The notes beneath the pieces were generated by a model that was not told where the DNA came from, did no database searches, and worked only from the letters and a program-made list of their open reading frames with translations. Below, in pieces: positions 2,603-59,012 of a stretch of DNA of 64,000 nt (position 1 is the stretch's first letter; each line of letters starts with the position of its first letter). Both the position numbers and the translations under genes were made by a program. The DNA comes from Candidatus Peregrinibacteria bacterium (GTDB taxonomy: Bacteria > Patescibacteriota > Gracilibacteria > UBA1369 > UM-FILTER-53-11), in the NCBI GenBank assembly GCA_016186205.1, contig JACPMA010000014.1:74409-138408 (forward strand), written 5' to 3'.

Positions 2603-4714
2603 ATGAAAAAACTTCTTGTTGTGGTCGGCATTCTTGTCGTTGCACTGACGCTCTCTTCTCCTATTTCATATACGCTCGGTGCACCACTTTCTCTGCAACC
2701 TGAACTCATAGCTCCAACGGCAGAGAAAGAAGAAGACGATGAAGACGAAGATGGCACAGATTGTTCTGAAGAAGAATGCCCGGAAGAAGAAGTTTGCGAA
2801 AAAGATATATGGAAATGCGACACGTGGACAGCATGTTCGGCTGACGGCGTACAGAAAAGAACTTGCAAGCTGTTAGACGATTGTCCGGATGTAACAACAC
2901 CACAACCTACAACAAGCCAAAAATGCGAGGCGGCAAAACCGACAGTTCCATCCATTATCGACGATGGAAAAAAGACAACGGAAGATAAAAAAGATGCGGA
3001 GGCGAAAAAATTAGAAGAAGAAAAGGCGGCAGCGCTTAAGAAAGCTTCGGAATTAAAACTTATTGAGGAGGCGAAAAAGAAAGCGGATTCGCAAGTTCAA
3101 AAAGATGAAGAGGCTAAAAAATTAGAAGCGCAAAAAGCAGCGGCCATCAAGAAAGCCTTACTGGAAGAAGAGGCACAGAAGAAAGCGCTCGAAGCGGAAA
3201 AGTCTAAGGCCGAAGCTGCTGCACAAAAAGCCGCTGAAGAAGAAAAAGAAAAACAGCGGCTCATTGAGGAAGCGCAGAAAAAAGCGGATGAAGAATTAAA
3301 ACTCGCACAGGAAGAACTTTTTAGAAAACAGGCCGAGGAAGAAGCGCGCAGAAAAGCAGAAGAAGAGTTGGCCGCAAAAATTCGAGAGGAAGCAGAAAGG
3401 AAAAAAGTTCTTGAGGCTGCCGTACAAGCAACGCCTGTTTTTGAAGAGATATTTGTCGCGCCGCCCGTATCGGTGGCTCCGCTCATTGAAGATTTCAACA
3501 ACAACGGCATTCCTGATAATTTTGAAGTAATGCCGAAAAAAGTTGATGAAGAACTTATAAAATTCCAAGCCGACCTAAAAGTGCAAGAACAAAAACTCGT
3601 CACAGAACAAGGACAAAGGCCGGAAGAAGCTCGCGACTTTGTTACGAAAGTTTTCAAAAAGAAAAAGGCGGAGAATAAAGTGAGCGCCATTCGCGAAGCA
3701 AGTAAGAAAAAAGGCGTTGAAATTAAAAATTCAAAACAAGGCGTTGAAAAATGGGGTACTTCCGATGAGGTGGCGGTTTTGCTGGGCATAAATCCGCGGG
3801 AAGTCGTTTCGCCAAAAGCTGCCATTCTGCCTGTGGAGAAAAAACTTTTGCGCATAAAAGATACGGCAGCGCTTGAGAAAAAATGCTCAATGAGCATTGC
3901 GAATGGAGATAAGCTGCCTACAGCTGGATTTACAATTCTTGCCGCGTGTCCGAAAAATAAATCATTCAATCTAGTGGCTGTCGACAGAGCAGGAAAACAA
4001 ACAAAGATTGAAACAAAACCGGCGTCGGAAAATGGGAAACTTGTTTATGTCGTGAATAAAAAATTATTCTACGCAGGCGATTTTGTACTTCAATTGCAAG
4101 AAGAAAAAACTCATCCGCTCGGATTTCTGCCTTCATCATGGTTTACAAGCGCCTTGAATAGCGAAAGCGATCAACCGATTCAATCCGATCCGGTGCTTGT
4201 GAAAGTTGTTGAAGATATCGACATTCCGCAGCCTGTGGTACAAAGCATCGAAGGAATCGACGTAGCAGATCTGCGCGACATAAAAATTTCAGCGACTGCT
4301 GATGGAAAAGTGCGCGTAACAGGCCTTTCTGACATATCAACAATGGTCATCGGCACATTCTCCAGCGCGGTTTTCACTTCCGCCATTCTGGCCGATGTGG
4401 AAAGCGGTTCATTTGAAGTTGTTTCTCCGCGGCCGCTTGAAACCGGCGATCACGAAGTGGTCATTTACGCCACCAAGCCGGAGGAATCCGAGCAGAGTCC
4501 GCCGGTAAAATTGCGATTCAGCATTATTCAAACCGCAAACGCAGCATCAGCCGGAAGCGAAGAGACAAAAAGACCGGTTGCAATAGCGCCGATCCGCGGA
4601 GATGGCGAGACTAAAAAATTCCCGATGGCGCCCGTACTCGCATTCGCAGGACTCGGCATACTTTTCATCGGAATCGGACTTTATCTCAAGAAGAATAAAA
4701 AAGCCGGCGCTTAG
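2603..4714 (+). CDS. secreted, C-terminally anchored coiled-coil surface protein (hypothetical)
   Basis: 703 aa. Signal peptide MKKLLVVVGILVVALTLSS, acidic Cys/Trp module, ~300-aa K/E/A-rich coiled coil, and a C-terminal hydrophobic helix followed by KKNKK. Confidence 0.7.
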   Translation: MKKLLVVVGILVVALTLSSPISYTLGAPLSLQPELIAPTAEKEEDDEDEDGTDCSEEECPEEEVCEKDIWKCDTWTACSADGVQKRTCKLLDDCPDVTTPQPTTSQKCEAAKPTVPSIIDDGKKTTEDKKDAEAKKLEEEKAAALKKASELKLIEEAKKKADSQVQKDEEAKKLEAQKAAAIKKALLEEEAQKKALEAEKSKAEAAAQKAAEEEKEKQRLIEEAQKKADEELKLAQEELFRKQAEEEARRKAEEELAAKIREEAERKKVLEAAVQATPVFEEIFVAPPVSVAPLIEDFNNNGIPDNFEVMPKKVDEELIKFQADLKVQEQKLVTEQGQRPEEARDFVTKVFKKKKAENKVSAIREASKKKGVEIKNSKQGVEKWGTSDEVAVLLGINPREVVSPKAAILPVEKKLLRIKDTAALEKKCSMSIANGDKLPTAGFTILAACPKNKSFNLVAVDRAGKQTKIETKPASENGKLVYVVNKKLFYAGDFVLQLQEEKTHPLGFLPSSWFTSALNSESDQPIQSDPVLVKVVEDIDIPQPVVQSIEGIDVADLRDIKISATADGKVRVTGLSDISTMVIGTFSSAVFTSAILADVESGSFEVVSPRPLETGDHEVVIYATKPEESEQSPPVKLRFSIIQTANAASAGSEETKRPVAIAPIRGDGETKKFPMAPVLAFAGLGILFIGIGLYLKKNKKAGA

Positions 4715-6922: not shown

Positions 6923-9900
6923 ATGGCAACCAAAATAAACTCCGGCAAATCCGGTAAAAAAGGTCTTTCAATAACCCGTCGTTTTACAAAAAAAGGCGCT
7001 GATCCGCTCAAAACTACTCAATATGAACTGCGCACCTCACGCATCACAAATCCTGATGGCTCCGTTGTGTTTGAGATGAAAAATGTCGAAATTCCGGCTT
7101 CTTGGACGCAAGTTGCCACAGACATTCTCGCGCAAAAATATTTCCGCAAAAAAGGCGTGCCGGATGAAAAAGGCGGTCGGGGCGGAAGCGAATGGTCTGC
7201 AAAACAAGTGATGACGCGGCTCGCCGGAACATGGAGATATTGGGGTGAAAAATACGGATATTTTGCCTCAAAAGAAGATGCGCAGGCTTTTGAAGATGAA
7301 ATGAAATACATGCTCATTCATCAAATGGGAGCGCCGAATTCCCCGCAATGGTTTAACACGGGATTGGCATGGGCGTATGGAATTACCGGCGAAGCTCAAG
7401 GACATTATTACGTGGATCCGGACGACGGCGAAATAAAAAAATCTAGCGATGCATATACGCATCCGCAACCCCATGCATGTTTTATACAAAGCATAAAAGA
7501 CGATCTCGTGAATGAAGGCGGAATTTTTGATTTGATGACGCGTGAAGCGCGTTTATTTAAGTATGGATCCGGAACCGGTTCAAACTTTTCGCAAATCCGC
7601 GGCAAGAGCGAAAATCTCTCCGGCGGCGGAAAATCTTCCGGATTAATGAGTTTTCTTGCAACAATAGATCGTGCAGCCGGCGCTATTAAATCAGGCGGAA
7701 CAACGCGGCGGGCCGCAAAAATGGTCTGCCTCGATATTAATCATCCGGAAGTTGAAGATTTTATAAATTGGAAAGTCATCGAGGAACAGAAAGTCGCTGC
7801 GCTACATGCAGGCTCATACATTTGCTATGAACATTTAAGGCGAATTCTCACATGCGCTCATGAAAAAGGTATTGATCCGGCGCAAAATCCGGAGCTCAAA
7901 AAACTTATCCGGGCTGCGCACGAAGCGCATATTCCACTCAATTACATAAAACGCGTCCTGATGCTTGCGTCTCAAGGCGTGCAGCCGGAGGATTTTGATT
8001 TTCGGACATACGACACCGACTTTCGTTCTGAAGCATATCTCACGGTTTCAGGCCAAAATTCGAATAATTCCCTGCGCATTACGAATGATTTTCTTAAAGC
8101 GGTGGAAAATGACAAACCGTGGAACCTAATGAATCGCGTGGATAAAAAAATCTCGAAGACCGTTTCGGCAAAAAAATTATGGGACACTATTTCTTATGCG
8201 GCGTGGGCTTGCGCGGATCCAGGTATTCAATTCGACACAACTTTTAATGAATGGCATACATGTCCGGAAGATGGCCGTATTAACGCAACAAACCCATGCA
8301 GCGAGTATGCCTTCCTCGATGACACAGCGTGCAATTTGGCTTCCATTAATCTTTCAAAATTCTATGATCCGAAAACATCGCTGCTCGACACGGAAGCCTT
8401 GAAACACGCGAGCCGGTTGTGGACCATCGTCTTAGAAATATCCGTTTTGATGGCGCAATTCCCTTCAAAAGAAATCGCGCAGAAATCATATGAATTCCGG
8501 ACGCTCGGTTTGGGATATGCGAATCTCGGAACCATCCTAATGCAAATGGGAATTCCGTATTCAAGCGAGGAAGCGTATGCGATTTGCGGCGCGGTAACGG
8601 CTATTCTCTGCGGCCAGTCCTATGCGACTTCCGCTGAACTCGCAAAAGTTCTCGGTCCTTTTTCAAAATACGCGCGCAATAAAAAATCTATGCTCCGCGT
8701 AATCAAAAATCACCGCCGCGCGGCGTATAATGCGGCGAAAAAAGAATATGAAGGACTAACTGCAATTCCCCACGGCATTCAGGAAAAATACGCTCCGGCA
8801 TACCTCTTAAAAACGGCAAAAGGGTGCTGGGATGAAGCTTTAAATTTGGGCGAAAAATACGGATACAGAAACGCGCAAGTCACGGTCATCGCGCCTACTG
8901 GAACCATCGGGCTTGTGATGGATTGCGACACCACCGGCATTGAACCTGATTTTGCGCTCGTGAAATTCAAAAAACTTGTTGGCGGAGGCTATATGAAAAT
9001 CGTCAATCAATCGGTTAATAAAACGCTCAAAGCGCTTGACTATACGGACGCGCAAATTGAAGACATTGAAAATTATATGAAAGGCCGCGGCACGCTTGAG
9101 GGATGTCCTCACATAAATGAAAAATCACTTCGCGAACACGGATTTACTGAAAAAGAAATTCTTGCAATTGAAACGCAACTCGCATCGATTTTTGATCTCC
9201 GCTTTGCGTTTAATCGTTTTGTTCTTGGAGATGAATTTTGCCGCAACATACTTGGATTTACCGATGAAATCCTGGCGGATCCGAAACTCGATATTCTCCA
9301 ACTCCTTGGATTTACGCCTGAGCAAATTGAAGCGGCAAATGAATATATTTGCGGCACCATGGCTATTGAAGGCGCACCGCATCTCAAAGAAATCCACTAT
9401 CCGATTTTTGATTGTGCGAACCGCTGCGGAAAAAAAGGGAAACGGTTTATTCCTTGGGAAGCGCATCTTCGCATGATGGCTGCAGCGCAACCGTTTATCA
9501 CCGGCGCCATAAGCAAAACCATAAATATGCCGGAAGATTCCACGCTCGAAGATGTGAAAAAAGCATATTGGCTAAGTTGGGAATATATGCTTAAAGCCGT
9601 GGCTCTTTACCGTGACGGAAGCAAACTTTCCCAACCGCTTAATACTTCAGCATCGGATCCAACGTATGCGGCTCTATTTAGTTTTGATGAAGAGGCGAGC
9701 GACAGCGAGCCTTTTATAAATCAAGCGGCGGTTCAGAAAGCGATAGAAGCGCAGGCCGCTGCGCGTCCGATCCGCCGGAAACTGCCTGCTGAACGCCATT
9801 CCATTACCCATAAATTCGTTGTGGCAAATCATGAAGGCTATCTCACTATCGGACTCTATGACGAAGGCGCGCCCGGAGAAATTTTCATCAAAATGAGCAA

Positions 9901-23349: not shown

Positions 23350-24228
23350 ATGCTCTCCACTCTTCTCTTTTCTCTTTTCTTTGAAACCATTGAGCCTTCG
23401 TACGGCACCTTTGTCCAATTTGTGCCGGCGCATATCTCGACGGCTGCGGAAACCGAGAAGGCGCCGCGCAAAAGAGGAGACAGCTTGGTGCCTGTTATTG
23501 AAGCAAAATCCATATACGCCATTGATCTCAAAACGGATACTCCATTGCTCGCGCGCGACATTTTTACACGGCGATCCATCGCTTCGATCGGAAAACTCAT
23601 AACGGCCATGGTGATTCTCGACCGCCATAAACTCGATGAAAAAATAATTGTCAGTAAAAATGCCGCGGAGGAACAGGGATCTAAAATGGGGCTCAAGACC
23701 GGCGAAGAAATAACTGTGGAAAATCTCCTTATGGGCATGCTCATCGCTTCCGGCAACGATGCGGCAAAAGCGCTTGCGGAGTTTGATTCGGGTTCGGAAG
23801 ACGTTTTTGTTTTTAAAATGAATGAAAAAGCGCGCTCACTCGGCCTGAAAGACACCCATTTCTCCAATGCAAAAGGATTTGATGAACCGGAAAATTATTC
23901 CACGGCCTATGATGCGTCTATTTTTGCAAAAGCGGCGCTCAATTATCCTTTTATCCGAAAAACCGTGGCTCTAAAAACAACAACGGTGACTTCTGCAAGC
24001 GGAAAAACAAAACACCTTCTCGAAAGCACGAATGAACTCCTCGAAAATCCTTATTGGAAAGTCGTCGGACTCAAAACCGGCCGCACGCCTGCAGCCGGAC
24101 AATCATTTGTGGCCCTTGCAGAGGGACCGAATGGACGCAATATTCTTACAATCGTCCTCGACAGCCCGAGCCGCTTCAAGGAAACAAAGATTCTGATAGA
24201 CTGGATCTTGCGGAATTATGAATTTTGA
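23350..24228 (+). CDS. D-alanyl-D-alanine carboxypeptidase (peptidase S11, PBP5/6-like)
   Basis: 292 aa. SxxK (SIGK), SxN (SGN in IASGNDAA) and KTG (LKTGRT) motifs. Confidence 0.8.
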   Translation: MLSTLLFSLFFETIEPSYGTFVQFVPAHISTAAETEKAPRKRGDSLVPVIEAKSIYAIDLKTDTPLLARDIFTRRSIASIGKLITAMVILDRHKLDEKIIVSKNAAEEQGSKMGLKTGEEITVENLLMGMLIASGNDAAKALAEFDSGSEDVFVFKMNEKARSLGLKDTHFSNAKGFDEPENYSTAYDASIFAKAALNYPFIRKTVALKTTTVTSASGKTKHLLESTNELLENPYWKVVGLKTGRTPAAGQSFVALAEGPNGRNILTIVLDSPSRFKETKILIDWILRNYEF

Positions 24229-25231
24229 ATTTTCTATCGACATAGGCACCGCGCTCCGCCATTTTTCCCTTATTTTCGGCCTAGCTATAACGAGCTTTTT
24301 CGTCGTTACGCTTGCCACACCTCCTTTTTACCGCTTCCTAAATCATTTCCAGCTCAAAAAAAGGCTGCGCACGGAAGCTGCTGACGGAAAATCGGCGCCG
24401 ATTTTTCTTAAACTTCATAAAGATAAAGAGGGCACTCCGACTATGGGCGGCATTCTCATCTGGGCCACGGCTGCATTCATCGTTCTCCTTTCACCGTTGG
24501 CTCAAAAATTCGGCATCACCAAATTTTCCCTCTTTAATCGCAACGAAACGTATCTTCCGGTTTTCACGCTACTTGCCTGTGCGCTCCTCGGACTCGCCGA
24601 CGATTTCCTCAACATTATGAACGGAAAAACAAAAGGTCTTCGGGTAAAACCGAAATTTCTTTGGCTAACGCTTTTTGGAATTCTCGGCGGCCTTTGGTTC
24701 CACTTCAAGCTCGGATTCGACTTCATCCATATTCCCGGCCTCGGAAATTTTACGATCGGCGCATGGTATATCGTCTTATTTGCGTTCATTATCGTCGCGA
24801 GCGCCAATGCAGTAAACATCACCGACGGCCTTGACGGCCTTGCAGGCGGCCTCATTGTTATCAGCTTTATAGCGCTCGGCATCATCGCATATATTCAGGG
24901 ACTCGTTATACTTGCGGCTTTCTGCGCAATCATCGTCGGAGCCACTCTCGCTTTTTTGTGGTTTAACATTCCGCCGGCGCTCTTTTATATGGGCGATACC
25001 GGCGCTCTGGCGCTAGGCGCAACCATGGGCGTTATCGCCATGCTAACCAACTCTATTCTCATTCTGCCGTTCATAGCTTTTGTTTTTGTACTTGAGGCTT
25101 TCTCTTCTCTAGCACAGCTTTTATGGAAAAAATGGTTCAACAAAAAAATCTTCATTATTGCGCCGCTCCATCACCATTTTGAAGCAAAAGGCTGGCCTGA
25201 ACTTGATGTCGGGAGCGTAAGGAACCGCTGA
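24218..25231 (+). CDS. mraY: phospho-N-acetylmuramoyl-pentapeptide transferase, ending about 20 aa early
   Basis: 337 aa. TPTMGGILI, NAVNITDGLDGLAGG and PLHHHFEAKGWPE motifs. The ORF stops 9 aa after GWPE, at a TGA inside the 25219-25384 palindrome. Confidence 0.9.
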   Translation: MNFEFSIDIGTALRHFSLIFGLAITSFFVVTLATPPFYRFLNHFQLKKRLRTEAADGKSAPIFLKLHKDKEGTPTMGGILIWATAAFIVLLSPLAQKFGITKFSLFNRNETYLPVFTLLACALLGLADDFLNIMNGKTKGLRVKPKFLWLTLFGILGGLWFHFKLGFDFIHIPGLGNFTIGAWYIVLFAFIIVASANAVNITDGLDGLAGGLIVISFIALGIIAYIQGLVILAAFCAIIVGATLAFLWFNIPPALFYMGDTGALALGATMGVIAMLTNSILILPFIAFVFVLEAFSSLAQLLWKKWFNKKIFIIAPLHHHFEAKGWPELDVGSVRNR

Positions 25232-25384
25232 AAAACTATGTTTAAAAGCGAAAATTACAAAATTCGAGCGAAAACTTTGAAGGCCGACGAAGCCGTATCA
25301 GGTTTGATACGGCGAGGAGGCGTGAAAAGTTTGCAGCCGAATTTTGTAATTTGCAGCTTAAAGAGAGTTTTTCAGCGGTTCCTT
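25219..25384. repeat. 166-bp near-perfect palindromic element between convergent genes
   Basis: Terminal arms AAGGAACCGCTGAAAAACT (25219-25237) and AGTTTTTCAGCGGTTCCTT (25366-25384) are exact reverse complements. Nested arms: GAAAATTACAAAATTCG with CGAATTTTGTAATTTGC. Apex hairpin: CCGTATCA-GGTT-TGATACGG. Confidence 0.7.
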
Positions 25385-27325
25385 AGATGCTGATGCTGCC
25401 GGCAGAGTCGTGGTACCGGTGACCGCGATCACAGCGCCGTCGCTTTTGATATCAACACGATCTTTCGTCAAAGTAACATCTACAACTGATTTTCCGTTCA
25501 CGTCGATATTTTTAATGCCTTCAAGTTTTTTCAAAACTTCGCTGCTCGGTCCGGTCTGCTGAACATTAAGCACAGCTTCTCCAATCTTCGTGAGGGTGTC
25601 GGTTTTGGCGTCTGTAACGGCAATCTGCAGGCCGTCCGCAATAACGCTTGTGGTCCCTGCGGCAATTGCTTCCAAAATCTTCAAATCTTCCGCTTTATTA
25701 TCCAAAAGCGTTGTTACAGCCTGCTCCTTCGCATCGCTCGGCAACTGCTTTAAATCGGAAACCGCCTCCGAAATCGCTTTACTGTACTCCTTTACTTGCT
25801 GTTGAGCCGTTTCAGTATCGCCCTGCTCGGCAAGGTCATGCGCCTCAAGCAATTTATCGCCGGCCTGTGAAGCAAGTTCCTGGGTTTTTTGCTGCGGATC
25901 AGTCGCTGTTAGAAGTTTTACCTGCCCGATTACTTCTTTTAATGCATAGAGCGGGTCGGTTGGCAGCAACAAAGAAAGTTGCTTTTCGTAAGCGCTCAAC
26001 GCCTCGGTAATCTGCGTTTTCAATGTCAATATCTGTACAGGATCATCAGCTTCGTGATCCAAAATCCATTGAAGGAGGTTTTGCACTTGAACTTTGAATG
26101 CATCTAGCAAGACGCGCGCTTTTTCGGTTTCTCCTTTTGTTAAAAGAACTTGCGCTTCGGCAAATTTTTCCTGCGCTGCCAAAAATACTTTTTTCCTGCG
26201 GGCAAAATCGTCGAGTGTAAGCGCAATTTTTGTTCCTTCAGAAAGCTCTTTCATGCCATAGAAAGGACTGCCCGGCAAAACCTGCACTTGTGAATTTATC
26301 TGTGTTTGATTTTCTTGTTTTACAGTTTCAATATACTGTTTATCCGCAGCAAGATTTTCAGCCACCCACTGGTCTTTTTGGTCTGCAGGCTGAAGTTCTT
26401 GACGAATCTGCGGAGCAAGCGGGGTATCGGTTTTTACTTCTGCCGTAAAACCTTTTACAAGCGTTGTCTCAATGATTTTTTTGTCCGTCGCAACTACAAG
26501 ATCTACTTTGTTTTGAACAGCCGAAACTTTTGCTTTCCCCTTTGCCGTTACAGAAACATCAAAGGCCGCTTTTTTCTTCGCAACAGCCACTGTGTTTTTC
26601 GCTTTTACTTGAAAACGCGAGAAATTATTGATGAGATTGATGACGCGCGACCACAACCGGCCGCGATGAAGCACAAGTTCAACAACGGTTTCCGTCTTGT
26701 TGGCCGGATTCATAAAAAGTTTCGATATTTTCACTTCCGTATTTTCATCAAGCCGGCTCACGCTTTGATCCAAAAACCGGATCACCGCTTTAGAATTCGC
26801 TCCGGTCCGCACAACGTCATCGGATTTGAGTAAAAAATTCGGCGCGCCGAGGATTACTTGTTCGCCGCGCATAACCGTCACGTCTCCGTTTATTTCGCCA
26901 AGCGAAGTCACAAATGATGCTTCCACATTCGGAATTTTGAATGTGAAATTAAAAAACAAACCGAAAACAAAAACTGCTGCCACGATCGATGCCCAGAACC
27001 GACGGTGATTTCTAATCCAAAATGGAATAAACGAAAACCGCCTTGCGTGAAATTCCGCAACGGTTATGAGTTTCTCTTTGAGTAAACTTTGAAAAGCGGC
27101 CGAAGGATGAATTTGAGAGGCAAGATTTTTTATTTTTTCTATAAGATCTGCGAGCGAAGCTTCGTGGAAAGACTTCTTTTGGGCCTGAAGAGAAGCCATA
27201 ATAAGCCGTTTCATGCCAGCCTGTTTTTCTCTTGGAAGAGATATATTAGAACACTGTTTTAGTTTATTTTCAAGCGCGGCGTATGGCGCTATTTTTTTCT
27301 GAAGCAATCTATCTAGAAATTTCAT
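25358..27325 (-). CDS. anti-sigma factor-like membrane protein with a FecR domain and long coiled-coil C-terminal region
   Basis: 655 aa. Single TM helix (FWASIVAAVFVFGLFFNF). FecR-like segment GDVTVMRGEQVILGAPNFLLKSDDVVRTGANSKAVIRF. Directly downstream of an ECF sigma gene. Confidence 0.65.
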   Translation of the reverse strand: MKFLDRLLQKKIAPYAALENKLKQCSNISLPREKQAGMKRLIMASLQAQKKSFHEASLADLIEKIKNLASQIHPSAAFQSLLKEKLITVAEFHARRFSFIPFWIRNHRRFWASIVAAVFVFGLFFNFTFKIPNVEASFVTSLGEINGDVTVMRGEQVILGAPNFLLKSDDVVRTGANSKAVIRFLDQSVSRLDENTEVKISKLFMNPANKTETVVELVLHRGRLWSRVINLINNFSRFQVKAKNTVAVAKKKAAFDVSVTAKGKAKVSAVQNKVDLVVATDKKIIETTLVKGFTAEVKTDTPLAPQIRQELQPADQKDQWVAENLAADKQYIETVKQENQTQINSQVQVLPGSPFYGMKELSEGTKIALTLDDFARRKKVFLAAQEKFAEAQVLLTKGETEKARVLLDAFKVQVQNLLQWILDHEADDPVQILTLKTQITEALSAYEKQLSLLLPTDPLYALKEVIGQVKLLTATDPQQKTQELASQAGDKLLEAHDLAEQGDTETAQQQVKEYSKAISEAVSDLKQLPSDAKEQAVTTLLDNKAEDLKILEAIAAGTTSVIADGLQIAVTDAKTDTLTKIGEAVLNVQQTGPSSEVLKKLEGIKNIDVNGKSVVDVTLTKDRVDIKSDGAVIAVTGTTTLPAASASKEPLKNSL

Positions 27326-29794: not shown

Positions 29795-30853
29795 ATGAGA
29801 AAGGACTGGACCCAAAATCTGTGGCTCCTGGGAACGTGGCTGTTCCTGGCATACGTGGGGACGGGCGTCATGCCCAAAGTCTTCACGTACGGACTCGGCG
29901 GGGTCGACAAAGTCAGCCAGAACCAGTACGCGATCTTCAGCACGGCCGGCGGGATCATCGTCGGTCTGCTGATCGTCTTCGGACTGGGCTGGCTCCGCCA
30001 CTTCAAGCGGACGATCCCGTGGGAGGGCACGATGACGTGCGTGTCCGGCTTCAGCACGGCTGTTGTCATCGTGACGACGACCTTGATGTACACGTTCAAG
30101 GGCGTGTCGGTGATGGTGGCACAGGTGCTGATGCGGGGCAGCGTCATCATCTTGATGCTGGGTATCGACGGCATCATGATCTGGCGTGGGCTCAGCACGA
30201 CGAAGATCACGCGGACCCAGTACAAGGGCGTCGCCTTCGCGCTCGCGGCCATCGCGTTGGCGATCTTCGCTCCGGCTCGGCCGCTCAAGCCGGGACAGTA
30301 CGCAGCGACCTTCACGGAGATCCTGCCGACGTTGCTCGCGTACATCTTCCTGGGATACGCAATCCGCCTCTTCATCCAGCAGCTCTGGAAGCACAAGAAG
30401 GGAGAGGCGGCCCAGGACAACCGCGGTTTCTTCGCGGTTGAGCAGCTCTTCGCGGTGGCGACGCTCGTGGCGGTCGCGGTGTACATCTGCTTCTCGTCCT
30501 CGACGGCTCCGGGCCTCGTCGACGCGCAGCAGGCGTTCAAACACTGGAACGGGTGGGCGATGGTGAGCGGCATTTTCTTCGGTCTGGTGGCGGTGCCGAG
30601 CGTGTTCCTGATGATGCTCAAGGGACGCACGGGAACCTTCGGCGCGCTGCTGAACCGGGTGGTGACGCTGATCGCCGGAACAATCGCGACGTGCGCGCTC
30701 GCGATCGCCGTCGCCGGCCAGAACTGGCCGACGGTGTACGACTGGGTGTCGTTCGGACTGTTGCTGCTTGCCCTGCACTACGTGGGGAAGGCGGCGGCGG
30801 AGAAGAAGAAGGCGGCGGTGACCCTGGTGCGTCCGGCCGGCGCGACGGCCTAG
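29795..30853 (+). CDS. polytopic membrane protein (about 10 TM, 5+5; DMT/EamA-like by topology only) on compositionally foreign DNA
   Basis: 352 aa. AGGAGG at 29779-29784, 10 nt before the ATG. 24 of the first 30 codons end in G/C. Hydrophobic spans run throughout the sequence. This is the only frame in the region that gives a sensible protein. Confidence 0.75.
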   Translation: MRKDWTQNLWLLGTWLFLAYVGTGVMPKVFTYGLGGVDKVSQNQYAIFSTAGGIIVGLLIVFGLGWLRHFKRTIPWEGTMTCVSGFSTAVVIVTTTLMYTFKGVSVMVAQVLMRGSVIILMLGIDGIMIWRGLSTTKITRTQYKGVAFALAAIALAIFAPARPLKPGQYAATFTEILPTLLAYIFLGYAIRLFIQQLWKHKKGEAAQDNRGFFAVEQLFAVATLVAVAVYICFSSSTAPGLVDAQQAFKHWNGWAMVSGIFFGLVAVPSVFLMMLKGRTGTFGALLNRVVTLIAGTIATCALAIAVAGQNWPTVYDWVSFGLLLLALHYVGKAAAEKKKAAVTLVRPAGATA

Positions 30854-30863
30854 GGATGCGAAT

Positions 30864-30905
30864 CTTCGGGCGGTCGGTGGGGGAAACTCTGCCGACCGTC
30901 CGAAG
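30864..30905 (+). terminator. GC-rich hairpin after the foreign gene
   Basis: CTTCGGGCGGTCGG (30864-30877) pairs with CCGACCGTCCGAAG (30892-30905) around a ~13-nt loop. It starts 11 nt after the TAG. No T-run follows. Confidence 0.45.
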
Positions 30906-30920
30906 ACCGTATGAAATGCA

Positions 30921-31024
30921 TTGAATCTCTCTTTCCTTGTTCTATTTTTAAGCTCAGCTTCGCTCAAAAACTGGCAGAGCCAGATCTTTTCGCTCGCTTC
31001 GCGCTCGGCCCGTGGCCTCGCAGC
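30921..31024. repeat. ~104-bp element, left copy of the inverted pair flanking fbp/fba
   Basis: The reverse complement aligns with 33014-33115. The first 27 nt (GCTGCGAGGCCACGGGCCGAGCGCGAA) are identical, and there are about 8 differences over the inner ~80 nt by hand alignment. It ends 5 nt from the fbp stop. Confidence 0.8.
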
Positions 31025-31029
31025 GCGGA

Positions 31030-31935
31030 TCAAGACAGATAATTTTCAATTTGTTCCACCGTTTTCTTCGACCCGATATAAATCGGAGTTCTTTGATGTA
31101 GTTCGGTTATTTTTTTTGCAAGGATGCGGGTTTTGCCGTCGCTGGATGCGCCTCCGGCTTGCTCCATTAAAAGCGCCATGGGATTGCATTCAAAAAGCAA
31201 TCGCAATTTGCCGTCCGGAGCCTTGGAATAACCCGGATACGTAAAAATTCCATTCCCTTTTAGAAAAATATGATTTAAATCCGGCACCATGCCACCGGAA
31301 TATCGCAGTGTTAAGCCATTTTTTATCCATTCATTCACAAGCTTTAAATAATCCTCGCGCTCGGCGGCCGCGCGTAAATTTCCCGGCGCAAAATGTTTTG
31401 AATCCTCGGCAACGCGGAGATTTTCGCGCGTGAGATAAAATTCCTCATTATCCGCAAGTCTAAATTCATGCGTGCCTTTTTTTGTAGTTATAACAAGCGT
31501 CGTGTGCGGGCCATATACAGCAAACGCTGCGGCAACTTGATCATCACCGGTTTTCCCAATTGGATTGCCGCCAGGATACACGCCAAAAATCGAACCGACC
31601 GCAAAATTAACATCAACTAACGAAGAGCCATCCAGCGGATCAAAAACAACGGTGAATTGCCCCGAAGATTTCACTGCCACCGCTTCTTCCAGCTCTTCCG
31701 ACGCAAGCCGCTCAACAAGGCCGGACTTTTTCAATTCATCAACGACAATTTCATTCGCTTGCACATCCAGCGCAAGCTGCTTTTCGCCGTAGACATTTTC
31801 ACTCCCTGCTAATTCTCCGCCCTGTTTTCCAATCGCATCACTAATTTTTACAACAGTGCGAGGAATTATCTCTCCCATGAGCCGCGCAAGATTTGCTTCG
31901 CAGCCGGATTTCTGCAAAAATTCGAGCAGTTTCAT
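31030..31935 (-). CDS. fbp: fructose-1,6-bisphosphatase class 1
   Basis: 301 aa. FDPLDGSS metal site, and YSGGMVPD...GKLRLLFECNPMALLMEQAGGASSDG. Confidence 0.8.
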   Translation of the reverse strand: MKLLEFLQKSGCEANLARLMGEIIPRTVVKISDAIGKQGGELAGSENVYGEKQLALDVQANEIVVDELKKSGLVERLASEELEEAVAVKSSGQFTVVFDPLDGSSLVDVNFAVGSIFGVYPGGNPIGKTGDDQVAAAFAVYGPHTTLVITTKKGTHEFRLADNEEFYLTRENLRVAEDSKHFAPGNLRAAAEREDYLKLVNEWIKNGLTLRYSGGMVPDLNHIFLKGNGIFTYPGYSKAPDGKLRLLFECNPMALLMEQAGGASSDGKTRILAKKITELHQRTPIYIGSKKTVEQIENYLS

Positions 31936-31955
31936 AACAAACCCAATTCTAACAT

Positions 31956-32999
31956 ATGAATAAAGATATTCTTTCTAAAACCGCAAAAGCCATGGTGGCG
32001 CCCGGAAAAGGGATTCTCGCTATTGATGAAAGCCACTCAACGTGCAAAAAACGCTTTGATGCCTACAACATTGAATGCACGGAAGAAAATCGCCGGGCGT
32101 ACCGCGAAGTCCTTATTACGGCGCCCGGAGCCGAGGAGTTTTTAAGCGGCATGATTTTGTTTGATGAAACGCTGCGGCAAAAAACGAAGGGTGGCGTGGC
32201 GTTTGCCGAAGTTTTAAAGAAAAAAGGAATGATTCCTGGAATCAAAGTGGATAAAGGCGCGTTTGATCTCGCGCTGCATCCTGGAGAAAAAATCACAGAA
32301 GGTCTGGATGGCTTGCGTGAGCGATTAACTGAATATAAAGCGCTCGGCGCCGGATTTGCGAAGTGGCGCGCTGTAATCACTATCGGAGCGGGAATTCCAA
32401 GTATGGCATGTATTTATGGAAACGCTCATGCGCTCGCGCGGTATGCCGCGTTATGCCAAGAACAAGACATCGTTCCAATGGTGGAACCGGAAATTTTAAT
32501 TGATGGAAATCACACGATTGAAAAATGCTATGAAGTGACGGCGCTAACTTTGAAAACGGTTTTTGCACAGTTAAAAGAGCAAGGCGTTTTGCCGGAAGGA
32601 ACTATTTTGAAGGTAAGTATGGTGCTTTCCGGAAAAGCTTGTCCCACGCAGTCTGACGTGGAAGAAGTGGCGCTGGAAACGATCCGATGCTTGAAAGAAA
32701 ATGTGCCGCCAAATTTAGCCGGCATTGTATTTCTCTCCGGCGGCCAGAGCGACGAAAAAGCGACCGCTCATTTGGATGCCATGAATAAACTTGCTGCTGC
32801 CGGCGGCGCGAACAAACTTCCGTGGCCTTTAAGCTTTTCTTACGGCCGCGCCATCCAATCCGCCGCACTCCAAATTTGGGCAAAAGACCGCATGGCCGTT
32901 GATCGCGCGCAAAAAGCGGTAGTCATGCGCTCAAAATTAAACAGCCTCGCCACGCTTGGCAAATACGACGCGGCGCTGGAAGCAAACTTGAGCTTATAA
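31956..32999 (+). CDS. fba: fructose-bisphosphate aldolase class I
   Basis: 347 aa. GILAIDESHSTCKKRF, Schiff-base region ILKVSMV, and LSGGQSDE. The start is only 20 nt from the divergent fbp start. Confidence 0.85.
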   Translation: MNKDILSKTAKAMVAPGKGILAIDESHSTCKKRFDAYNIECTEENRRAYREVLITAPGAEEFLSGMILFDETLRQKTKGGVAFAEVLKKKGMIPGIKVDKGAFDLALHPGEKITEGLDGLRERLTEYKALGAGFAKWRAVITIGAGIPSMACIYGNAHALARYAALCQEQDIVPMVEPEILIDGNHTIEKCYEVTALTLKTVFAQLKEQGVLPEGTILKVSMVLSGKACPTQSDVEEVALETIRCLKENVPPNLAGIVFLSGGQSDEKATAHLDAMNKLAAAGGANKLPWPLSFSYGRAIQSAALQIWAKDRMAVDRAQKAVVMRSKLNSLATLGKYDAALEANLSL

Positions 33000-33013
33000 A
33001 TAAGTTCTTCATT

Positions 33014-33115
33014 GCTGCGAGGCCACGGGCCGAGCGCGAAACGAGCGAAGAATCTGGCTTTGCCAGTTCTTAGCGAAGTTGAGCTTATAAATAAAGAAAG
33101 GGAGAGAATCTTGAA
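33014..33115. repeat. ~102-bp element, right copy of the inverted pair flanking fbp/fba
   Basis: It starts 14 nt after the fba TAA. It contains the hairpin AAGAA-T-CTGGC-TTT-GCCAG-TTCTT; the partner copy keeps an equivalent hairpin with changed A/T-rich pairs. Confidence 0.8.
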
Positions 33116-33225
33116 GGCGGGAAGCGATAGAACTTGATTATGGACGTAATGCCGATAATCGGGTAGCTATGCTTTTGGTCCCAATCCTTTCAAAAATCTC
33201 TTAACCCTTTCAATAAGGAGATACG

Positions 33226-33636
33226 TTAAGGCTTCCAAACTGGAAGCTGCGCGACATTCCCGTCGGCTTTTATAAAAACGGGGTTTCGCGCGGGGATCAT
33301 GCGGGATGTAACATCGCTTTGTCGAATTTCATTTAAAGATTTCATTCGCGCGATGCCGGTTGATTGCATTTCGCGCGCAGTCATGAGGCGATCGCGTTCA
33401 ATCTCGAGTTTGCGCAACTGATAGCCTTTTGTGTGAATTTCAGTGAATTTTATAAGGTACACAAAACTCAAAAGCCCGATCATCAAAGTCATGGAAAAAA
33501 GCAAAAAGAATCGGCCTACGCGCAGCGTCAGAGGAAATGCGGAGCGCGTATGGATGGCTCGATGGAATTGAGAACGGTGTGTGAGGATGAGTTGTGCCAT
33601 ATATTTTGGCTTTCCGTGACCCGGTGCATGAAGCAC
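33226..33636 (-). CDS. ftsL: FtsL-like cell-division protein (TM plus coiled coil)
   Basis: It lies immediately downstream of rsmH, as in dcw clusters. Single TM helix FFLLFSMTLMIGLLSFVYLI followed by a heptad-like segment. The start is uncertain (alternative ATG at 33600). Confidence 0.45.
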   Translation of the reverse strand: MLHAPGHGKPKYMAQLILTHRSQFHRAIHTRSAFPLTLRVGRFFLLFSMTLMIGLLSFVYLIKFTEIHTKGYQLRKLEIERDRLMTAREMQSTGIARMKSLNEIRQSDVTSRMIPARNPVFIKADGNVAQLPVWKP

Positions 33637-58072: not shown

Positions 58073-58984
58073 ATGCTTCCACAAAAACTCTTCGGCTCTT
58101 TTGTAGCCATCGTAACGCCGTTCAATGAAGACGGCTCGCTCGATGAAACATCTTACCGCAACCTTCTCCGCTGGCATCTGCAGGCCGGCACCAACGGCAT
58201 TGTCGCGTGCGGAACAACCGGCGAAAATGCCACGCTTACAACGGAAGAACGGGAGCGCGTGATCAAAATCGCCATTGAAGAATGTGCTTCTAAAATTCCG
58301 GTCATTGGCGGCATCGCATCAAACAATACCGCTGAAGCGGTACGCCAAGCGCAGTGGGTAAAAAATCTCGGCGTCGATGCAACGCTCGTTCTCGCTCCAT
58401 ACTACAACAAACCGCCTGCTGAAGGCCTTTTCCAGCATTTCAAAGCCGTCGCGGAAGTTGGCAATCCCATAATTGTTTATAACGTTCCGGGGAGAACCGG
58501 TGTAAATATTTCGCCGGAAGTTGTAATTCGGTTGGCGAAAGAAATTGCAGGCGTCATTGCTGTTAAGGAGGCGTCTGGAAATCCCGGCCAATTTATGGAA
58601 ATTTTGCGCGCAATCGCTGCCGGAACCCAATCATGGAAATCTCCAAATTTTGTCTTACTCCTCGGCGATGACGCGGTGACGCTTCCGTTTATTCCGCTCG
58701 GCGCAACGGGATGTATTTCTGTGGTGGCGAACGAGACACCGCGCGAATTTTCTGAGATGATAGCGGCTGCGCTCGCGGGTGATTATCAAAAAGCATCACA
58801 GCTTCACTTTAAAATTCTCCAGCTCATGAATGTAAACTTTATAGAAACGAATCCCCTGCCGGTAAAAACGGCGCTTGCGCTCATGGGAAAAATCAAACCG
58901 GTTTTCCGCCTACCGCTCGTCCCAATGCAACCTGCAAATATTGAAAAACTCAAAAAGGTTTTAATGGAATTGCAATTAATTTAA
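58073..58984 (+). CDS. dapA: 4-hydroxy-tetrahydrodipicolinate synthase
   Basis: 303 aa. GTTGENATLT, YNKP, VYNVPGRTG and IAVKEASGN (Schiff-base Lys). Confidence 0.9.
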   Translation: MLPQKLFGSFVAIVTPFNEDGSLDETSYRNLLRWHLQAGTNGIVACGTTGENATLTTEERERVIKIAIEECASKIPVIGGIASNNTAEAVRQAQWVKNLGVDATLVLAPYYNKPPAEGLFQHFKAVAEVGNPIIVYNVPGRTGVNISPEVVIRLAKEIAGVIAVKEASGNPGQFMEILRAIAAGTQSWKSPNFVLLLGDDAVTLPFIPLGATGCISVVANETPREFSEMIAAALAGDYQKASQLHFKILQLMNVNFIETNPLPVKTALALMGKIKPVFRLPLVPMQPANIEKLKKVLMELQLI

Positions 58985-59012
58985 AAAGGCTCGCTCTGCG
59001 AGCTCGCCTGAT

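Follow-up and report, generated by a model that had tools for sequence, protein, structure and literature searches.

A dispersed hairpin repeat, probably inserted twice independently, flanks the divergent fbp and fba genes of a Peregrinibacteria genome

Small structured repeats are a familiar component of bacterial genomes. REP/BIME elements are short, extragenic, hairpin-forming sequences present in many copies, often in 3' flanks or operons, where they are transcribed with their neighbors; in proteobacteria they are mobilized by RAYT (TnpA-REP) transposases, and in E. coli REP elements stabilize upstream mRNA. The IS200/IS605-derived PATEs are strand asymmetric, lack terminal inverted repeats, and carry hairpins near both ends, whereas Rickettsia palindromic elements (RPE) are small repeats found inside stable-RNA genes and fused in frame to open reading frames (ORFs). 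The pneumococcal BOX and Neisseria Correia repeats are modular and intergenic and form stable structures close to gene starts and ends. Here we describe a repeat of this general kind from a 64,000-nt stretch of a Candidatus Peregrinibacteria bacterium genome (assembly GCA_016186205.1, contig JACPMA010000014.1, positions 74,409 to 138,408; hereafter, the window), in which two inverted copies bracket the fructose-1,6-bisphosphatase gene fbp and the fructose-bisphosphate aldolase gene fba. An original prediction, made from the sequence alone, had offered three readings of these arms: a shared 3' module or terminator, a pair of insertions resembling REP elements or miniature inverted-repeat transposable elements (MITEs), and the ends of a composite or invertible cassette. 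We find it probable that the arms are two independent insertions of a small noncoding REP/BOX/RPE-like repeat that has spread through the Peribacteria clade of the Peregrinibacteria, and the copies at fbp and fba are best seen as passengers.

The original prediction described the geometry of the locus correctly in most respects. The arms are mutual reverse complements with an exact 27-nt core, GCTGCGAGGCCACGGGCCGAGCGCGAA (30998-31024 on the minus strand and 33014-33040 on the plus strand), which was matched in 0 of 100 dinucleotide-preserving shuffles with 3 mismatches permitted. Complementarity is 97% over 36 nt (30989-31024 versus 33014-33049), and the few differences claimed over about 80 nt amount to 7 mismatches and 2 one-base gaps between the two copies (about 89% identity; Table 1). 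The arms do begin 5 nt from the fbp stop codon and 14 nt from that of fba, and the genes are divergent, with 20 nt between their start codons; the left copy, as delimited here, has its first base (31022) 7 nt past the fbp stop codon. The arm length of about 100 bp held only in part, in that some 80 nt form the element and the ~20 nt at either outer end (30921-30941 and 33095-33115) lie outside the repeat. On the right, those outer ~20 nt are the start of a separate 106-nt hairpin region that is present in relatives without the element. When the whole window was scanned with the full covariance model, only these two copies were returned, and the next match scored 17 bits. We rejected the 17-bit match at 58977-59008 as a third copy because it is a short palindrome between two genes and an unconvincing member.

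The element is a strand-asymmetric unit of 75 to 95 nt that reads (T)GCGAGGCCACGGGCCGAGCGCGAAG ... CTGAGC TTATAAATAA. Hairpin 1, at the 5' end, is almost invariant (GC-GA-GGCC-ACG-GGCC-GA-GC). Helix 2 begins at the base right after hairpin 1, is of variable length, is likewise closed by GC-GA...GA-GC, and lies beside an A/T-rich 3' tail, TTATAAATAA. Short forms of helix 2, which include both window copies, end in CTGGC-NNN-GCCAG, and long forms carry an additional hairpin, GGAGCCCC...GGGGCGACU. Within the window copies, helix 2 consists of short Watson-Crick blocks set between tandem G·A mismatches (GC-GA-AGC-GA-GC-GA-AAAGA...). The CTGGC-N3-GCCAG hairpin of the original prediction is therefore real, its A/T extension differing between copies yet pairing in both, and it belongs to a larger helix that covaries across the family. 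An optional upstream extension, GTTCTTCATTGCT, occurs in one subfamily, the right arm included. Terminal inverted repeats are absent: the ends GCGAGGCC... and ...CTGAGCTTA are not mutual inverted copies, and the G·A-clamped motif makes sense on just one strand.

Covariation of the helices across the repeat family is strong. RNAalifold predicted the same architecture from 12 short and from 10 long copies; standard pairs occupied 95 to 96% of cells, versus 20 to 40% with slid partners, and double-sided changes were present at 11 of 17 and 10 of 22 pairs, values that 0 of 500 shuffles reached. Hairpin 1 also tolerates compensated stem variants (GGCC/GGCC, GCGC/GCGC, and GCAC/GUGC), with the ACG loop and the GCGA...GAGC clamp always kept. 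Once trimmed to the element, the window copies fold alone into the family consensus (z scores of -3.0 for the right copy and -2.4 for the left), and the minimum-energy structure makes up 50% of the ensemble of the right copy; the untrimmed arms of about 110 nt gave weak z scores of -1.8 and -0.6. The element had no Rfam match at gathering thresholds in the window and 20 loci or at E values of up to 10 in 30700-33400.

Table 1. Positions of the repeat copies and associated features. Positions refer to the window unless a locus is named; RNase P helix names are our own reading by E. coli numbering.
Feature	Position	Strand	Support or remarks
fbp, class 1 fructose-1,6-bisphosphatase, 301 aa	31030..31935	-	Pfam FBPase + FBPase_C; NCBIfam class 1 FBPase
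fba, class I fructose-bisphosphate aldolase, 347 aa	31956..32999	+	Pfam Glycolytic, 8e-130; NCBIfam FrucBisAld_I
Left repeat copy, short form, 81 nt	30942..31022	-	Covariance model, 86.6 bits, E 4e-20
Left copy, hairpin 1	31003-31021	-	
Left copy, helix 2	30952-31002	-	
Left copy, tail TTAAAAATAG	30942-30951	-	
Right repeat copy, short form, 79 nt	33016..33094	+	Covariance model, 95.1 bits, E 3e-22
Right copy, hairpin 1	33017-33035	+	
Right copy, helix 2	33036-33084	+	
Right copy, tail TTATAAATAA	33085-33094	+	
5' extension GTTCTTCATTGC	33004..33015	+	Subfamily: window right copy, L020, L022, L031, L040, L046 (aligned 5' flanks)
Solo fragment like the element 3' end, AGCAAACTTGAGCTTATAAATAA	32981..33003	+	Direct repeat D1, 91% identity
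Conserved rod-like hairpin region, 106 nt	33096..33201	- (strand tentative)	Between right copy and ftsL-like gene
RNase P RNA of L021	570-1030		Element in place of P3
RNase P RNA of L033	1991-2644		Element in apical loop of P13-type hairpin
RNase P RNA of L033	1991-2644		Element in J2/4 linker

Both arms belong to a dispersed family that is not specific to fbp and fba and whose genomic contexts are unrelated. An exact scan for a 22-nt segment of the core yielded 5 copies from 3 Peregrinibacteria/Peribacteria metagenome-assembled genomes, two of which carry copies on two contigs, and a 20-nt segment retrieved 28 metagenome stretches, about 20 of which hold genuine family members. One 96-kb contig contains 3 exact-core copies, and one 44.8-kb contig contains 2. 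Using a covariance model built from 27 copies, we recovered 37 copies scoring at least 30 bits in the fetched loci (L numbers), among them more diverged ones and several tandems. The exact-core matches in L019, L025, L027, L030, L034, L035, and L042 were discarded as chance because they lie inside coding sequence of GC-rich non-Peribacteria, and the repeat was not matched in viral contigs.

Most copies sit right after stop codons or right before tRNA or other genes, and fusions to reading-frame ends also occur. One lies in the rpmJ-rpsM spacer (L014), others are directly upstream of tRNA-Ser, tRNA-Ile, and tRNA-Val genes or, in one case, downstream of a tRNA-Met gene, and further copies fall between assorted protein-coding genes. 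All tandem pairs (L015, L018, L041, and L044) are arranged head to tail. Three sense-strand insertions were found in RNase P RNA genes at two loci (L021 and L033; Table 1), and these genes, each lengthened by one or two sense copies, reach up to 654 nt. Copies that are antisense within a ribosomal-protein operon (L017; rplR/rpsE and rplN/rplX spacers) retain all of the conserved features. Another contig, L022, is a large palindrome with inverted duplicates of an lysS-like fragment, two small ORFs, and two repeat copies; it is probably an assembly or amplification chimera or artifact and was left out for genomic context.

Close relatives keep fbp and fba but differ in the arms that they carry, which, judged from the aligned loci, is an insertion polymorphism. 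The fba proteins of the window, L012, L047, L009, and L013 share 87 to 90% mutual identity in a star-like pattern. L009 keeps the neighborhood (sigma factor/FecR, spermidine synthase-like gene, GC-rich ORF, fbp, fba, ..., rsmH) and has a short-form copy after fbp; on the other side, its fba ends in KESVG*, followed by a TPR gene and then only a remnant of the element's 3' end before the conserved hairpin region. The fbp side of L047 is not informative, but its fba side is a clean empty site, ...GGAG TAAATAA AGAAAGGG.... In L013, a long-form copy follows fbp at the same position as the short forms of the window and L009, and the 3' half of the element is fused directly in frame to fba, giving the protein end SEESGSASSERS*. 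L050 has no element after fbp, and its contig stops shortly past fba; in L012, fbp is not adjacent and fba is followed by a different, hairpin-rich spacer of 240 nt. A further polymorphic site lies at 7418-7870 (minus strand) of L009, where a copy is inserted exactly at the stop codon of an ftsL-like ORF. That ORF reads through the whole element, gaining 27 codons, to a TAA in the element tail, and the same site is empty in the window, L012, and L013.

The space between the two genes varies as well. The 20-nt start spacer of the window (31936-31955) has no Shine-Dalgarno-like sequence on either side; L009 shares the 20-nt spacing, and L012, without an adjacent fbp, retains the fba start context TAACATATG. 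A YafQ/ParE-type toxin gene with a small upstream ORF lies between fbp and fba in L013 (1000-2690) and L050 (2236-2767), with an extra 229-aa ORF in L013, so the 20-nt divergent arrangement is not universal.

These comparisons bear directly on the suggestion that the arms delimit a composite, mobile, or invertible cassette, in which recombination would flip or move the 2-kb segment. Inverted copies do closely bracket two functionally linked genes, and one Logan contig stops at 33050, where the near-perfect 36-nt arm ends. However, synteny is retained in L009 without a full fba-side copy, the site after fba is cleanly empty in L047, and the arms are not each other's nearest kin; the nearest sampled copy to the right arm lies beside the tRNA-Val gene of L044, from another metagenome (96%), compared with 88 to 90% for the left arm. 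Across five independent Logan assemblies, identity to the window is 100%, and the two that span both arms agree in orientation. Assemblies of this kind are unambiguous because the exact repeat (27 nt) is shorter than the assembler k-mer, which we take to be 31. Furthermore, the annotation of the surrounding ±5 kb includes no recombinase or transposase domain, although no genome-wide search was made. The mobile or phase-variable cassette is largely refuted by these observations, and we regard it as scarcely credible. The inverted arrangement itself has a simpler source: sense insertions in the 3' flanks of two divergent genes are necessarily inverted relative to each other.

A segmental event that duplicated the 3' flank of one gene, inverted, onto the other could also have produced two similar arms, and the best match of the left arm among sampled copies is indeed the right arm (88%), a relationship that gene conversion could equally give. 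Nevertheless, the right arm has closer matches than the left arm in different genomes and contexts (L044, 96%; L022, 92%), the family is dispersed, and the fbp-side and fba-side copies are distributed differently among relatives. Given these findings, we consider a local duplication very unlikely.

The fba side of the locus preserves details of the insertion site. The window reads ...GAGCTTA TAAATAA [GTTCTTC...GAGCTTA] TAAATAA AGAAAGGG..., and TAAATAA therefore occurs once at the empty site of L047 and twice at the filled site of the window (32997-33003 and 33088-33094). A 23-nt direct repeat, missed by the original prediction, links the end of fba to the 3' end of the right element (33072-33094; Table 1), and its copy in fba supplies the stop codon and the final five residues, ANLSL. 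Since the fba proteins of relatives end in ...ALEKExxx and that of the window ends in ...ALEANLSL, the last five codons and the stop of the window fba derive from element-like sequence; a weak model match (12.4 bits) covers 32915-33003. By the same comparison, the state of L013 would correspond to that of the window minus 61 nt between two AGCRAAS direct repeats. A partial target-site duplication is present in L031, where 6 of 7 bases match, and none is visible at the ftsL-like site or at the RNase P sites. The preference in the 5' flank is weak, with T at -1 in 61% of copies and a consensus of TTRYT. The TAAATAA site, which is beside the 106-nt region, holds a different insertion in almost every relative.

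Compared with the systems described above, the element shares with REP/BIME its small size, hairpins, and frequent placement in transcribed 3' flanks and operons, probably a multicopy, largely extragenic distribution, and also conserved sequence beside a palindrome, which suggests recognition by a trans-acting enzyme. Unlike REP, it begins with (T)GCGAGG rather than a GTAG-type 5' tetranucleotide, it comprises two helices over 75 to 95 nt rather than a 20- to 40-nt palindrome, its helices are clamped by tandem G·A mismatches, and it clusters head to tail, whereas REP clusters alternate. The inverted pair in the window also flanks fbp and fba and not a RAYT transposase, and no RAYT was identified, although no genome-wide search was made. 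With PATEs it has in common strand asymmetry, the lack of terminal inverted repeats, hairpins near both ends, and filled and empty sites that mostly differ without a target duplication, and the empty site of L047 is compatible with precise excision. Its differences are the weak TTRYT flank, the 7-nt duplication at the fba site, which the IS200/IS605 family does not make, and the lack of an identified cognate TnpA, for which no transposase search was made. The resemblance to RPE lies in the RNase P RNA insertions, the fba tails of L013 and the window, and the lengthened ftsL-like ORF of L009; however, sequence and host phylum are unrelated to those of RPE, and the element is mostly intergenic, with fusions only at the C-terminal ends of ORFs. 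BOX and Correia repeats provide a parallel for its modular build (optional 5' extension, invariant module, variable-length module, and tail), its intergenic placement near gene starts and ends, and its stable structures, but the element has neither terminal inverted repeats nor a consistent Correia TA-type target duplication, and the sequences are unrelated. Thus, the prediction of a pair of MITE/REP-like insertions was sound as to a dispersed, multicopy repeat with empty, half-filled, and filled sites in relatives but not as to MITE terminal inverted repeats or classical REP features, and the element is at most a candidate member of an IS200/IS605-derived or REP/RAYT family.

With two independent insertions as the preferred reading, one copy would have landed 7 nt past the fbp stop codon and the other at the TAAATAA site just after fba, and small rearrangements between internal AGCGAAG direct repeats, to which the element is prone, would then have rewritten the last fba codons. 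We propose that a trans-acting enzyme may recognize the invariant hairpin 1 and copy or move the element as single-stranded DNA, as in IS200/IS605 and REP/RAYT systems. Recognition of single-stranded DNA is suggested because only one strand carries the conserved tandem G·A clamps, and recognition at the DNA level is suggested because the antisense copies in the ribosomal-protein operon keep every conserved feature. Several points weigh against this reading. No mobilizing enzyme was identified, and no search aimed at one was made. The window holds only 2 copies in 64 kb, and the exact-core scans used 20- to 22-nt pieces of the core, which biased the sampled copies toward an intact core. A duplication is clear only at the fba site and in part at L031, with none in three other filled/empty comparisons, which involve diverged genomes. 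Orientation relative to local genes is biased (about 18 sense and 4 antisense loci, by an approximate ORF-based reading), and counts of G-U versus A-C pairs were uninformative on the choice of strand. Finally, the 25-nt core is invariant across species whereas helix 2 covaries, and such a core could equally mean a function at the RNA level.

Some of these observations would also be expected if the element were a functional RNA module, acting in 3' untranslated region stability, processing, or protein binding, that is kept by selection and coregulates fbp and fba posttranscriptionally. The excess of sense copies (about 18 of 22 loci), the invariant core beside a covarying helix, the copies inside RNase P RNA and directly beside tRNA genes, and the better folding of the sense strand than of its complement (-30.1 versus -23.7 kcal/mol) all fit such a module, as do the repeated tandem G·A motifs, which are typical of RNA-protein recognition. 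On the other hand, orthologous sites are empty, half-filled, or differently filled in close relatives, and fbp and fba therefore do not need the element; the antisense copies keep the full motif; the tandems, fragments, and reading-frame fusions resemble insertional debris; and no Rfam family matches. We therefore think selection for an RNA module unlikely. It is conceivable, if doubtful, that the G·A-clamped hairpin (GCGA-stem-ACG-stem-GAGC) makes the element more than a passive repeat, as the recognition site of a trans-acting protein in these reduced-genome bacteria. The element would then be either a new kind of strand-specific mobile DNA without terminal inverted repeats or a domesticated RNA module, tolerated even within RNase P RNA, by which transcripts are marked to be processed or protected.

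Whatever its origin, the insertion pair has a consequence at the RNA level that the original prediction had anticipated and that still holds: both mRNAs would carry the same stable 3' stem-loops, which is probably all that the copies contribute here. By analogy with REP elements, the copies may stabilize the 3' ends of these mRNAs, and the presence of the element inside operons and inside an essential RNA gene indicates that it is tolerated within transcripts. The idea that the arms are a shared terminator found no support. Like intrinsic terminators, the copies form GC-rich stem-loops right after stop codons, and in the left copy a TTTTT run comes after the inner hairpin. However, this T run forms the 3' strand of helix 2 instead of a free tail, the right copy reads TTCTT, no U tract follows the full structure, and sense copies occur inside RNase P RNA genes and between cotranscribed ribosomal-protein genes. 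It is unlikely that the copies are terminators.

Other identities for the element were considered and set aside. The TATAAA tail does not behave as a -10 box for downstream tRNA, RNase P RNA, or protein genes, as tRNA 5' ends lie 10 to 14 nt and start codons 8 to 18 nt after GAGC and there is no -35 element. A small self-cleaving ribozyme or hammerhead-like core was rejected because the core nucleotides misfit and Rfam gave no match, and an integron attC site or a DNA uptake sequence was rejected because an R'/R'' core is lacking and copies are far too sparse. Nor is the element coding; it has no consistent frame and contributes residues only where it is fused to the end of a reading frame.

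Several structures near the locus are of separate interest. The 106-nt region is nearly invariant in the window, L009 (~7290-7400), L012 (~1850-1960), L013 (~3725-3835), and L047 (~1293-1400), whose proteins differ by 10 to 13%. Folding favors the minus strand (-39.5 versus -32.5 kcal/mol; many G-U pairs), on which a U-rich tail comes next; the rod pairs GAAAGGG/CCCTTTC, AGAGA/TCTCT, and TTGAAGG/CCTTTCAA and has a covarying apical hairpin. The region, which had no Rfam match, may encode a small RNA or serve the rsmH-ftsL operon as an elaborate terminator. On the other side of the locus, 29795-30853 encodes a predicted membrane protein of 352 aa without a Pfam or NCBIfam match, followed by a strong GC-rich hairpin (~30864-30905). 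This stretch is 62.5% GC (1-kb window 30001-31000) in a genome of about 45% GC. L009 has a 309-aa ORF at the same position with a visibly GC-rich 3' end, so the GC-rich gene probably predates the lineage split and was not brought in with the repeat.

Two other hairpin structures resemble the repeat in style. The 240-nt spacer after fba in L012 (1606-1850) contains three other hairpin modules, one of which, GCGAG-(GTCCAGCC...GGCTGGAC)-CGAGCG, is framed like hairpin 1 and is missed by the model; this module may represent a second, related repeat family. In the window, a nested inverted repeat of about 168 nt (25218-25385) has 28-nt arms that are 93% complementary and 34-nt inner arms that are 79% complementary. 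It lies between convergent genes, one at 24218-25231 (plus strand) and a FecR/DUF5667 gene at 25358-27325 (minus strand), and folds into a long rod whose internal loops are GA rich, much in the style of the dispersed repeat.

The kind of element described here is familiar from REP, BOX, RPE, and Correia repeats, but the family itself is new; full-text literature searches did not turn up a description of such a repeat family in Peregrinibacteria or the wider radiation. Its unusual features are the tandem G·A-clamped helices, the 25-nt invariant core, and repeated insertion into RNase P RNA. RNase P RNAs of the radiation are reported to have large helix extensions and to need manual refolding, in a study that does not mention the repeat (PMC8172020). 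The repeats inflate RNase P RNA genes by 100 to 250 nt, which helps to explain why these genes are hard to detect and require manual refolding in the radiation (PMC8172020). The repeats also break assemblies and alter the C-terminal ends of proteins, as seen for fba and the ftsL-like ORF. At this locus, no mobile or phase-variable gluconeogenic cassette is needed. The analysis documents a repeat family in the Peribacteria, an uncultured groundwater lineage with tiny genomes, and the family provides a clean natural collection of helices that covary and are built around tandem G·A mismatches.

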